Assembly (NCBI GenBank): GCA_958009085.1
Contig: OY253670.1
Location: 248,001-312,000, forward strand
Direction of reading: 5' to 3'
Origin: Protoeuglena noctilucae
Taxonomy: Eukaryota
Length of the DNA: 64,000 bases
Shown here: positions 44,185-47,950 of the stretch, in pieces
How positions within the stretch are numbered: the first letter of the stretch is position 1
Layout: the number at the start of each line of letters is the position of its first letter
Notes under the pieces: model-generated
What the model saw: the letters and a program-made list of their open reading frames with translations, nothing else
Told to the model about the DNA's origin: nothing
The model's database searches: none
Program-made: the position numbers and the translations under genes

Positions 44185-47100
44185 TCACGACAGCGGCGGC
44201 AGCTTGGCTCCCTTGGTGGTCCCCGCCCCCGCCGCCAGCCGTTGCTTCATCGACGTCCCCGCTGCGGCCCCCGGGGAGCGCGGGGTGCTGCTGCCCTTGG
44301 AGATGGGCGGCAGGTTCCCGCTCGCGGCGTCCTTGGCGATCCGCGAGGGCTCCGCGGGTTTCTTCTGCGAGCGCAAGCGAAGCAAGCGATGAGATGAGGC
44401 ACCAGGTTGTCAACCCGGGTGCATGGATGCTATCCATGGTCAAACTTATGGGTGACCCATGTGCGTGTTCGACCCCTATCCTCGCCTTGGCTGTCGCCGC
44501 CGCCGCCCCCGCCACCCCCGTCCCCGCCGCCCGCGCCCCCGCTTTGGAGGGCGATGCACTGCCAGACACAGACTCGGCCGACGACCCGTATTTGGCGAGG
44601 AGTCCCGGCTTGGCTGTCTTCTTGGGATCGGACTTGCCGTCCTTGGCTGCCGTGGCTGCCCCCGCCGCCGCCCCGCGCCCCGCCACCAGGCCGCCCTTCT
44701 TGGCGCCCGCCCCCGACGCCGAGAAGGCCATACTCGACGACGGAGCGAGCGAGTCTGTGGGCGAGGGAGTCGCGAAACACGCGATCAGCGCTGTCTGTGG
44801 TGATGGTGTGTGTGGCATTGTCAATGGGTGGCGGAGCGACGGGCACTGGCGTTGGGATGCGTGATGTGCAGGAATCACGGCAAGTGCCATACAGAGAGCA
44901 GCAACTGATGAGCAGCAACTGCTAGACACAGAAAGGAGAGCAGGTTGCTCTTCATCGACTCTGTGATGGCGATCTCACCGTGGCCGTCGGGGCCCCCCAG
45001 AGACACGGCGCTGTCCTCGCGCTTGCGCCCCCCACCCCCCAGCCCACCCTCCACCGCCAGGCTCGACATGGGGATGACCAGGTTGAGCGAGGCGTGCGTG
45101 TGGTCGGAGAAAATGCGATCGTCGCCGCCCTGCGAGACAGAAGGTGCGCAGGTGGTTGCACGATGCGTGTGCCGCAACCCCAATGCGCATGCGAGTGCAC
45201 GCGCAATGCACAGGCCAAGCACCCTCGCACCGGCGAGGGCTGCTCGCCACCCTTGCAACCCCACCCGCTCCGCACCCACGCCTGTCCCTCACAACCCTTC
45301 TCTGCACCCGCATTATGACACCCCGCACCACCCCCCACCTGCGTGGCCTGTGGTGTCCGCGTCGACATGCTCCTCAAGCTGGTCGTGCGCTTGGTTACGG
45401 CCTCCATCCCCTCGTCCTCGTCCCCCGGCATGTACACCCACCGGTGCTTTTTGATCTGCTGCAGCGTCAGTCGCTTGGACGGCTCAATGTGGAGCATCTT
45501 CTTAACCAGGTCCTTCAGGTCCGCGCTCAAGTGGGGCAGCATCGGGGCCATCTCGCCCTTGGAAATCTTCTTGAAAAGATCTCTGCGGTGGTGGGGGCGG
45601 CGGTGGCGGTGGTGATGGAAATGGGAGGGTGGGTGACGGGCGAGGCGACAGGCGAGAGGAAGAGTGACCTGGTCAACACACAACCTACTAACATCAACCT
45701 TGCGACCCTCGTTCATTGTAACCACCACGCTGCCCCTCACCGCATGGTGTTGCCCTTGAAGGGGAGGTGCCCGCACGTCATCTCGTAGAGAATCACACCC
45801 AGGGACCAGATATCGACCGCGGTGCCCTCGTAGGGCTGCCCGTTGACGATCTCGGGCGCGGCAAACTCAGGCGTCCCCACCGACTGGTTAAGGTTCTTGT
45901 TAAAGGGGGACGTGATGCCCGCCAGGCCGAAGTCAGCCACCTGAGTGGAGGTAGCAGTAGCAGGAGATAGCAGAATGATGCGGTGCATGCCAGGCCTGTC
46001 ACAGCCTCTCAGTGCGGTGGAATAGGTCGAGGGTGGTGTGCAATGCACGACCACATCTGCTGAATCGTGTGTGGTGTGACCGACCCCCAGAACTCGTGGC
46101 CTGCTCGCAAGCTACTAACTGAGCATCGATTCCCACCTTGATGTTGTTCATCTCGTCCATCAGCAGGTTCTCTGGCTTGAGGTCCCGGTGCACGATGCGC
46201 CTCCGGTGGCAGTAGTCAAGCGCGGACACCACTTGCCGGAACATGACGCGGGCCTCCTCCTCCGAAAGCCTGTGGTCCTCCTTCTCCCACATGTACTGCG
46301 AGAGGGGACGGGTGGGGTGAGGTGAGGGGCGCAGGGGCTGGGGGTGCACGGCAGGTGAGGGACGGAGAGGCGAGGGTGGTGGTGGAAAGGTGAAGGACAG
46401 GGGCTTGGGCTAGGAGTCAGGAGATGCGAGGGTGCAAAGTTGATACAAGCAGTCTTCACCAACCAACTCTAGCCCCCACCCTGCCACTCACAACTCCCCC
46501 CGACACCCATCGCCAAAACCACCGCCATCGACTCGCCTTGTGGAGCTCCCCACCCCCCGCGAACTCCATGACGAAGTAGATGCAGTTGCCAATGTACTGG
46601 ACGTCCATGAGCCGGATGATGTTCTCGTGCTTGAGGGAGCTGAGGACACGCATCTCGTCCTGAACATGCTCAATCTCCTGGATGTTGCGGAAGTTGCTCC
46701 CGTTGACCATCTTAATTGCCACCATCTCGTTCGTCTGCATGTCCCGGCCCTTGCGCACCACGCCCGAGGCGCCCGCGCCGATGACCTTCCCCAGCTGGTA
46801 CTTGCCAACCTTCTTGGGCCGCTGCTGCGTGACGTCCGACACCATCACCACCACCTGCTTCTGGTGCGAGCTGAGCGTCACAACGCCCGATTTCTGCTTC
46901 CCACCGCCCTGGATGTGCGGGAAGGCCACCATCTGCGCCCAGAAGGGGTCCCCGGACTGCCGGTAGGCCAGCAGCCGTACACCCACGCACGCCAGGTCCC
47001 GCATGCCCAGCACGAGCTTGGACATGTTGACCTTGTCCGTGTCCGGGCCGCACAGGCACAGGCACGAGAGGCCCGTCACGGCGCTGCTGCTGAACCCGGA

Positions 47101-47950
47101 CATCTCCTGGAAGCCGTCCGTGATGCTCTGGATGGGGCAGTCGGGCGCCGCCGCATCGACCAGCATGAAACACCGCATCTGGCGCTCCACCAGCTCCCGC
47201 AGCATCGCCGTCGGCGCGTCGCCCCGCCGCCGGTCCGAGATGTCCTGCATCAGGCACACCATGCGCACCAGCTGCCCGGACGTGTCGACCATAGGCACCA
47301 GCGCCAGCATGTTGCGGAACATCTGCTTGTTGCGCTTGTAGTGCGTCAGGTCCAACACCGTCGGCTGCCCGTCCTCGAACGCCCGCGCGATCTCCTCCAG
47401 CGCTGCCGGCTCCGTCTTCTCCCCGTTCAGGATGTCCAGCCGCTCCCCGCACAACTCCTGGGCCGAGAAGCCCGTCATGGCCTCCGCGCCCTTGGTCACG
47501 CACACGATGGGGTGCTGCGGCTGACTGCAGTCCACCACGACCACGCACTGCGGCCGGGCGGGGGTTCCGGGAGCGTCAGAGGGCGGGCAAGGGGCTAGAG
47601 TGCACAGCCGCAGCTTGCGCCGCCTCAGCCCCGCACCTTCGTGGCCTGCTCGACCTGGTCCTGCAGAGCCTCATCCTCGAGACAGAAGGAAGAGTCCTTT
47701 GCCTCCTCGGACCCCGCCGGACGCACGAGCAGCTCCCACGGCTCCGGCAGACCTGCATGTGGAGGAGTGCGCGCGGTGGGGGGGCGCGGGAGGGGCCGCC
47801 AGCGACGCACAGCTCACCTAGAAGACCGAAACTTGCGCGAAAGGCAGGGAACGGGCGCAGGAAACCTCGGGAGGGGTCAAGGACGCGAGCGTGCGCCGGG
47901 CCTGGCTCCACCGCGGGCCCATCGACATGGCAGACGGGGCTAGAGGACAT
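44185..47950 (-). CDS. Tandem PAS (LOV-like) domains fused to a SNF1/AMPK (CAMKL)-type Ser/Thr kinase with a disordered basic tail; about 9 exons
   Basis: PAS1 [13 protein letters not shown]...[22 protein letters not shown]...[13 protein letters not shown]2 [13 protein letters not shown]...[13 protein letters not shown]...YRQSGDPFW; kinase [56 protein letters not shown]. Confidence 0.88.

Follow-up and report, generated by a model that had tools for sequence, protein, structure and literature searches.

The DNA stretch analysed here, called the window throughout, comprises the 64,000 nucleotides from position 248,001 to 312,000 of contig OY253670.1 of Protoeuglena noctilucae (assembly GCA_958009085.1, forward strand). 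It is intron-bearing, has a G+C content of 62-70% and carries on its minus strand an expressed nuclear gene of this marine green alga, whose nine exons (coding sequence 48473..44185, minus strand, 2391 nt) form a closed reading frame for a soluble Ser/Thr kinase of 796 amino acids (aa). The kinase domain is preceded by two PAS domains of LOV type, which we named PAS-A and PAS-B. Judged by homology, the window gene is an orthologue of a green-algal family that is catalogued in databases and for which we found no functional study, and the window protein is most likely a light-blind form of this family.

Results

Domain architecture and degeneration of the flavin site

From the N terminus onwards, the protein consists of an N-terminal motif (aa 21-55), PAS-A, a linker of 19 residues, PAS-B, a second linker of nine residues (aa 300-308, QQRPKKVGK), the kinase domain and a tail (aa 567-796) of low complexity, which matches no Pfam family and contains the short conserved motifs H.SLNLVIP and ..LPPLS. 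An earlier, sequence-only reading of this stretch had seen two PAS domains with a LOV skeleton and the start of a kinase in one large exon. This was confirmed for exon 3, in which Pfam recognised PAS_9 in two stretches (E 1.1e-21) and the first 86 positions of Pkinase, the remainder of which lies in exons 4-6. The best match among solved structures was the LOV histidine kinase 9vf7 for PAS-A (E 4.3e-14, exon 3 query 2-109) and LOV1 of phototropin-2, 2z6d, for PAS-B (E 4.4e-14, exon 3 query 121-211). On the strength of these matches, both PAS domains are homologous to solved LOV domains, far beyond chance. With each other they share 24% identity (E 2e-10). Atlas searches returned generic PAS or phototropin-like clusters only, which serve as mere leads.

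The canonical LOV motif GRNCRFLQG is replaced by GERLDILNG in PAS-A and by GLSCLCLCG in PAS-B. Held against GXNCRFLQ with its adduct Cys, PAS-A has Leu instead of Cys, while PAS-B has a Cys but carries Ser for Asn, Leu for Arg and Cys for Gln. To score the flavin site, all PAS domains of the family were aligned with phototropin-type LOV1 and LOV2 domains and read at nine columns (N56, C57, R58, L60, Q61, R74, N89, N99 and Q120), numbered as in Chlamydomonas phot LOV1. Four phototropin-type LOV control domains scored 9/9, whereas the window protein reached 2/9 in PAS-A (R L D L N A H N M) and 2/9 in PAS-B (S C L L C V A A V), with the Cys of the adduct column kept in the latter. The residues in the Arg and Gln columns are replaced in both domains (by Asp and Ala and by Asn and Met in PAS-A; by Leu and Val and by Cys and Val in PAS-B). 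PAS-B has lost all three Asn, and PAS-A keeps only that of the N99 column. Since each domain scores 2/9 and PAS-A lacks the adduct Cys, the window protein is probably light-blind. The LOV style suggested by the sequence-only reading thus holds for homology and skeleton, but not for the flavin and Cys signature.

Across the family, PAS-A scored 7-9/9, Cys included, in 15 of the 31 scorable relatives, namely in most Chlorophyceae, in Nephroselmis and in one unnamed deep member. Values of 0-5/9 were found for PAS-A in the clade of the window protein, in trebouxiophytes, Gonium, Scenedesmaceae, a Mesostigma-labelled protein and some unnamed proteins. PAS-B scored 0-3/9 in every family member, including those with a canonical PAS-A. 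Light as an input, which the sequence-only reading had listed, is thus unlikely for the window protein and likely for relatives with a canonical LOV domain in first position. Mapped onto the kinase tree described below (25 scored rows), the state of PAS-A, canonical or degenerate, requires at least four changes. PAS-A of Gonium pectorale is degenerate (4/9, GRSCPALE), and as the other volvocine proteins score 7-9/9, the LOV site seems to have been lost inside the volvocine lineage.

A tree of PAS and LOV domains (59 rows, only 110 columns) contained separate groups for family PAS-A (support 99/95, starred), family PAS-B (100/99, starred), phototropin LOV1 (82/89), phototropin LOV2 (99/92, starred) and prokaryotic LOV domains (99/95, starred). 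In this tree, PAS-A and PAS-B of the window protein are each orthologous to PAS-A and PAS-B of the family. PAS-B joins phototropin LOV1 plus LOV2 at 98/76 on an unstarred branch and PAS-A stands outside both. As neither PAS-A nor PAS-B belongs to the LOV1 or the LOV2 group of phototropin, the sensor module is not a copy of the LOV1-LOV2 pair of that protein, which fits the independent assembly proposed from the sequence alone.

Despite its degenerate flavin site, PAS-A is as conserved as the kinase. Compared with the full-length relative P0001, which is 81% identical to the window protein overall, identity amounts to 83% in PAS-A, 74% in PAS-B, 85% in the kinase and 35% in the tail. Judged by this pattern, PAS-A is under strong constraint for some function other than canonical light sensing.

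A CAMKL kinase with an altered T-loop

The best 60 of 1217 matches of P0001 to solved structures (E <= 1e-20) were all CAMKL kinases, comprising SIK3 (1.6e-63), BRSK2, MARK1-4, AMPK alpha, Snf1, CIPK23/24 and MELK. The same classes were found among the best 60 matches of window exons 4 and 5, with the first AGC kinase (Akt) near the bottom for exon 5, and the kinase N-lobe in exon 3 matched ULK1, CIPK23/24, MARK and AMPK. SnRK1/AMPK alpha (44-46% identity) and SIK1 (41-43%) were the nearest named kinases outside the family. The activation segment from DFG to APE has 28 residues and no insert.

We calculated a maximum-likelihood tree of 45 kinase domains, from which P0021, P0024, P0047, P0066, P0188 and P0190 were left out as broken or insert-bearing rows. 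The 29 family rows formed a clade of their own (96/99, starred), AMPK/SnRK1 and SIK grouped at 93/81, and three phototropin-type kinases stood on a long separate branch. As phototropin-type we counted database proteins with two 9/9 LOV sites and an insert-split kinase; two more, used in the LOV tree, are named phototropin-1 by their source. The window protein, P0001 and Pedinophyceae grouped at 100/100 (starred) inside a 24-row clade (97/98, starred) with a trebouxiophyte group and a group of Bryopsis and Chlorophyceae. Outside that clade stand a Mesostigma-labelled protein, Nephroselmis and three unnamed proteins. Phototropin-type kinases reached 91-133 bits against the window kinase and matched in two pieces, compared to 231-497 bits for complete family members. 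By these matches and its motifs, the kinase is a catalytically intact member of CAMKL (AMPK/SnRK1/SIK/MARK-like) and not of AGC. The sequence-only reading had drawn the same distinction from AGC-VIII, and it is borne out by the structure ranking, the separate starred clade, the DFG motif and the activation segment.

At the column of the activating T-loop Thr (Thr172 of AMPK), all ten AMPK/SnRK1/SIK references have Thr and the window protein has Gln. Among the 29 family rows, this column holds Leu in 13, Gln in seven, Ser in three, Met in two and Val, Glu, Ala and Thr in one each, so that the residue is non-phosphorylatable in 25 of 29. Pfam detected no KA1, AdenylateSensor or UBA domain in exons 7-9 or in the tails of P0001, P0002 and the Volvox carteri protein AMPKR1m, whereas AMPK-like database matches carry PF16579/PF02149.

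The AMPKR1 family of green algae

The sequence-only reading had not recognised the product as a characterised algal protein; it turned out to have orthologues already deposited in databases, in a family without functional characterisation that we could find. Judged from its members, the family is spread across green algae, although under inconsistent names. It includes 'AMPKR1m' of Volvox carteri (D9CJ94) and 'AMPKR1 protein' of Gonium pectorale, proteins labelled 'AMP-activated protein kinase' in Volvox africanus and Gonium or 'OSK3' in Scenedesmus, and a 'LOV domain-containing protein' each in Astrephomene, Pleodorina and Apatococcus. 'Putative LOV domain-containing protein' is the name used for Volvox aureus A0A126X3E1, Dunaliella salina A0A126WZS7 and Nephroselmis olivacea A0A126WZE2. 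Members from Tetrabaena, Haematococcus, Tetradesmus, [Myrmecia] bisecta, Elliptochloris, Symbiochloris, Bryopsis and Pedinophyceae sp. YPF-701 bear hypothetical or generic names, and two eukprot labels were interpreted as Chromochloris zofingiensis and Mesostigma viride. Records with the name 'putative LOV domain-containing protein' suggest that family members were picked up in a census of LOV domains, reportedly that of Glantz et al. 2016 (PNAS), which may already describe the architecture. No protein of Chlamydomonas reinhardtii was among the relatives found in database searches, which is weak evidence of absence.

In the literature searched, 'AMPKR1' was not found in any algal paper, no paper was found that ties a LOV domain to AMP-activated protein kinase in Volvox, and none of the papers listed combined LOV with SNF1-related kinases. 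The main texts of three papers on volvocine mating loci (PMC4856071, PMC8166075 and PMC6123790) do not contain 'AMPK', while their supplements may describe the architecture.

Gene model, expression and locus

The gene model was initially built by eye and from homology and then revised against RNA contigs from four metatranscriptome runs (X1-X4; one study, at most three samples) aligned to the window. These contigs gave exact joints, without differing letters, for seven of the eight introns. Five joints occurred in all four runs (47637/47547, 46537/46295, ~46137/45940, 45741/45582 and ~45339/45129) and two in X1 only (44979/44754 and 44486/44364). At 47753, the contigs ended loosely in 30 letters identical to window 48414-48443 (X1-X3; 10 letters in X4), and exon 1 was therefore placed at 48473-48413. 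An in-frame stop lies upstream of exon 1, without which the reading frame does not close, and homologues match the model exon by exon. Of the gene ends proposed in the sequence-only reading, the stop codon was retained, whereas the ATG at 47950 falls into intron 1. All features are compiled in Table 1.

Table 1 Features of the kinase gene, listed in the direction of transcription (window positions; a slash in a donor sequence marks the exon end)
Feature	Position	Strand	Basis and remarks
Exon 1, 20 codons + 1 base, ATG at 48473	48413..48473	-	RNA loose end; donor G/GTGAGG; outside the interval of the sequence-only reading
Intron 1, 660 nt, GT-AG, holds ATG 47950	47753..48412	-	RNA and frame
Exon 2, family-wide N-terminal motif PW..x..RP......D.SF.LEDE...E	47637..47752	-	71% match to Pedinophyceae P0002; no Pfam family
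Exon 3, 337 aa: PAS-A, linker, PAS-B, kinase N-lobe	46537..47547	-	Both splice joints in four RNA runs
PAS-A, aa 60-165	47230..47547	-	LOV-derived; flavin site degenerate, 2/9; Leu for adduct Cys
PAS-A/PAS-B linker, 19 residues, aa 166-184	47173..47229	-	84% identity to P0001
PAS-B, aa 185-299	46828..47172	-	LOV-derived; flavin site degenerate, 2/9; Cys-rich GLSCLCLCG
CAMKL Ser/Thr kinase domain, aa 309-566, exons 3-6	45432..46800	-	Pfam, PDB, tree; APE intact; Gln at T-loop column
Intron 3, GC-AG, donor AAG/GCGAGT	46296..46536	-	Joint 46295/46537, plus-strand ends CT..GC, four RNA runs
Exon 4, 53 aa, catalytic loop, HRDLKPEN	46137..46295	-	Pfam, RNA, PDB
Exon 5, activation segment, DFGL	45741..45940	-	Pfam, RNA, PDB
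Exon 6, kinase C-lobe end and tail start	45339..45582	-	Pfam, homology, RNA
Exon 7, conserved tail motif H.SLNLVIP at 45070-45117	44979..45129	-	Homology; joint to exon 8 in X1 only
Exon 8, Ala/Gly/Lys-rich tail; GLLAKYG common to P0001 and P0002	44486..44754	-	Homology, RNA
Intron 8, GC-AG, donor AAG/GCGAGG	44365..44485	-	Joint 44364/44486, ends CT..GC, X1 only
Exon 9, coding part, stop TGA 44187-44185, C-terminal ..LPPLS	44185..44364	-	RNA, frame
3' untranslated region (UTR), at least to 44000	44000..44184	-	RNA contigs continue past 44000

Two candidate features were rejected during revision. A start at ATG 47950 with a candidate exon 1 at 47950-47818 was ruled out by the loose ends of the RNA contigs and by the frame, and for intron 3 a GTGAGT donor of consensus type at 46491 was discarded in favour of the GC donor at 46536, on which homologues and RNA agree. 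Across the site of this intron, P0001 continues as GGELHKYMWEKE. GC-AG splice sites occur in two of the eight introns (46296-46536 and 44365-44485), both supported by RNA. A test for introners was negative, as none of the eight introns resembled another one or any other part of the window (E 1e-3). A metagenome contig (L001:3660-6145) holds a relative 80-81% identical to window 44185-47757, in which the counterparts of exons 3, 4, 5 and 6 are contiguous in DNA and a single tblastn match runs unbroken from aa 57 to 766; hence, this relative lacks six of the eight introns of the window gene.

Upstream and divergent to the kinase gene lies a neighbour with an ARL2-binding BART domain (49337-49747, plus strand; Pfam E 2.1e-10), and its counterpart in the contig of the relative (L001:1464-1718), 46% identical, is found on the corresponding side of the kinase gene. 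The convergent downstream neighbour (42758-43537, plus strand) contains pieces of a class-I glutamine amidotransferase (Pfam E 7e-14 and 2.1e-14) and faces the 3' UTR of the kinase gene with its 3' end; by eye it resembles CTP synthase. Further away, a direct duplication of ~2.5 kb (~52990-55500 and 60686-63196, spacing 7696 bp) is 98% identical overall with stretches of 100%; either a segmental duplication of recent date or an artefact of the assembly may account for it. Tandem arrays with a period of 114 nt (38 codons) were found at 29788-30263, 54169-54642 and 61865-62338. Their consensus reads like a helical-repeat protein (..WAWAKLGYDP....FNPQDLANTV), perhaps akin to octotricopeptide or FAST-type repeats. 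GCGGGT/GGGTGC hexamer microsatellites occupy 8157-8275 (~20 copies) and 9385-9636 (~38 copies), and no tRNA or Rfam match was obtained in the 64-kb window.

Discussion

Given a conserved PAS module that has lost its flavin site and a kinase that lacks the AMPK-type T-loop Thr, we propose, with a probability of roughly 0.7, that the window protein represents a light-blind lineage of a LOV-PAS-CAMKL family, in which photochemistry was lost and the PAS module would gate the kinase in cis, without control by the T-loop or by a heterotrimer. The ancestor would have been a blue-light-regulated kinase with a flavin-binding LOV domain as its first PAS domain, and the lineage of the window protein, like several others, would have lost the photochemistry. 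That the PAS module would still control the kinase in cis is suggested by the nearly direct fusion of PAS-B to beta-1 of the N-lobe and by the strong constraint on PAS-A. Only nine residues separate the last strand of PAS-B (..VVMVSDVT) from beta-1 of the kinase (KYQLGKVIG), which would leave no room for a J-alpha-type helix, and PAS-B would therefore have to sit on the N-lobe. In the window protein, the input would be something other than light, e.g. a partner protein, oligomerisation, a ligand or thiol chemistry of PAS-B. In relatives with a canonical PAS-A, blue light would be the trigger, relayed via the 19-residue linker and PAS-B. Such control would bypass both T-loop phosphorylation of the AMPK type and the beta/gamma heterotrimer, since the protein has neither the T-loop Thr nor the regulatory domains at the C terminus.

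Several points weigh against this proposal. The conservation of PAS-A shows that the domain does something, but not what it does. PAS domains that are degenerate in sequence may bind flavin in a non-canonical way or carry another chromophore, and PAS-B does keep the Cys of the adduct column, as do 12 of the 25 aligned family members. We read the changes in PAS-A state as repeated losses because regaining seven to nine specific residues appears implausible, and not on the basis of a rooted test. The outgroups of the kinase tree were small (ten AMPK/SnRK1/SIK sequences plus three others) and contained no MARK, CIPK, SnRK2 or PASK, so that the tree does not fix the sister group of the family. Finally, the organism may possess a second paralogue with a canonical LOV domain, since only the window was covered.

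Other explanations have to be weighed against a light-blind, PAS-gated kinase. PAS-B could be a sensor of thiols, redox state or metal (possibly Fe-S), with the oxidation state of its pocket Cys or a bound metal gating the kinase. Cys occupies columns F59, N89, Q61 and C57 of PAS-B in 19, 17, 14 and 12 of 25 family sequences, the window PAS-B has Cys at three of these four columns (GLSCLCLCG), and the family-specific PAS-B clade (100/99, starred) has invariant G, W and P positions. We nevertheless consider such a sensor rather unlikely, as no single Cys column is invariant, the window protein has Ala at the N89 column, and no known metal-binding PAS domain was among the best PDB or Atlas matches, the best being LOV or generic PAS domains; the idea is a purely positional one. 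That the protein is still a photoreceptor, using the retained Cys of PAS-B with a non-canonical flavin or signalling through PAS-A without Cys, would fit the LOV ancestry of both domains, the adduct-column Cys of PAS-B kept in the window clade and the strong conservation of PAS-A. It is improbable in view of two of nine flavin-site residues per domain, with both Arg and both Gln columns replaced in each, and of a PAS-B that is degenerate in every family member, even where PAS-A is canonical.

The remaining alternatives assign the protein to kinases already known, and both appear very unlikely. A green-algal orthologue of animal and fungal PASK would share the layout of N-terminal PAS and C-terminal CAMK-group kinase, and a weak lead to chordate PASK was obtained from the Atlas (0.77), but the best 60 PDB matches obtained with exon 3, with P0001 and with exons 4 and 5 include no PASK, and the PAS domains are of LOV type. 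The labels 'AMP-activated protein kinase' and 'OSK3' point to a divergent catalytic subunit of AMPK/SnRK1 for energy sensing in a heterotrimer, to which we give even less credit. SnRK1/AMPK alpha are indeed the nearest named kinases outside the family (44-46%), and the top PDB matches include AMPK and Snf1. Against this stand the Gln in place of the T-loop Thr, the lack of KA1, AdenylateSensor and UBA domains, the separate starred clade and a PAS module that is foreign to AMPK.

In the surveys searched (two recent reviews, a photoreceptor inventory of Volvox and a paper on phototropin evolution), phototropin is treated as the only LOV-Ser/Thr kinase of green algae. In the reviews, the passages on LOV mention no proteins other than phototropins, aureochromes, neochromes and LOV histidine kinases (PMC12558739, PMC13436692). 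Of the 13 photoreceptors counted in the available part of the inventory (PMC4623044), a single phototropin is the only one with LOV, and the terms 'non-phototropin', 'LOV-containing' and 'kinase domain' are absent from a phototropin survey (PMC4532919). The locus described here points to a second family of LOV-type PAS kinases across green algae, with an AMPK-like kinase, and many members, including the Volvox carteri protein, keep a textbook LOV site. If these canonical members photocycle, blue light would have another way, besides phototropin, to drive protein phosphorylation in green algae, and protein engineers would gain a LOV-CAMKL fusion made by nature, in which the junction between sensor and kinase is unusually short. 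The window protein itself, with a LOV-derived module that has lost the flavin site and is yet as conserved as the kinase, is a natural test of what a LOV scaffold does in the absence of light sensing. A more far-reaching and doubtful idea is that the family forms an unrecognised second class of LOV-regulated Ser/Thr kinases with two inputs, ancestral blue light at PAS-A and redox or metal at a Cys-lined PAS-B; lineages like that of the window protein might then have dropped light and kept an AMPK-like kinase gated by redox or metabolites and independent of the T-loop.

Comparison with known systems

The window protein has the layout of the AMPKR1 family, i.e. N-terminal motif, PAS-A, PAS-B, a short junction and a CAMKL kinase. 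It shares with the family the junction ..D[IV]T..[RK].K[KR][VI]GKY.LG, the kinase clade, the signature ..PF....GTPEF of the activation segment and the tail motif H.S..LV.P. It differs from most Chlorophyceae and Nephroselmis, whose PAS-A scores 7-9/9 with Cys, in its 2/9 and Leu, and its kinase is only 55-57% identical to theirs. The volvocine proteins have ~970-1115 aa with long Gly/Ala-rich inserts.

Phototropin, like the window protein, has a Ser/Thr kinase that is preceded by two LOV-type PAS domains at the N terminus. In Arabidopsis phot1, as given in the available passages of PMC8086140, 145 residues lie between LOV1 and LOV2 and 70, including J-alpha, between LOV2 and the kinase, and the activation segment has 57 residues. 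The corresponding values of the window protein are 19, nine and 28, its kinase is CAMKL instead of AGC, its flavin sites are lost, and PAS-A stands outside both phototropin LOV groups. Bacterial LOV histidine kinases provide the best solved match of PAS-A (9vf7), but have a His kinase output and photoactive LOV domains, and prokaryotic LOV domains form their own group (99/95, starred).

The CAMKL kinase domain is shared with the alpha subunits of AMPK, SNF1 and SnRK1, to which it is 44-46% identical with common motifs including APE. The window protein differs from them in lacking the T-loop Thr and the C-terminal regulatory domains, in having N-terminal PAS domains and in belonging to a separate clade. 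For PASK, the available passages of PMC4586542 describe a PAS domain that binds and inhibits its kinase, a kinase of the CAMK group active without phosphorylation of the activation loop, as our model proposes for the window protein. PASK differs in a PAS domain that is not of LOV type and was absent from the best solved-structure matches. By analogy, we infer that the proposed gating in cis would resemble that by LOV2 in phototropin and that by the PAS domain in PASK.

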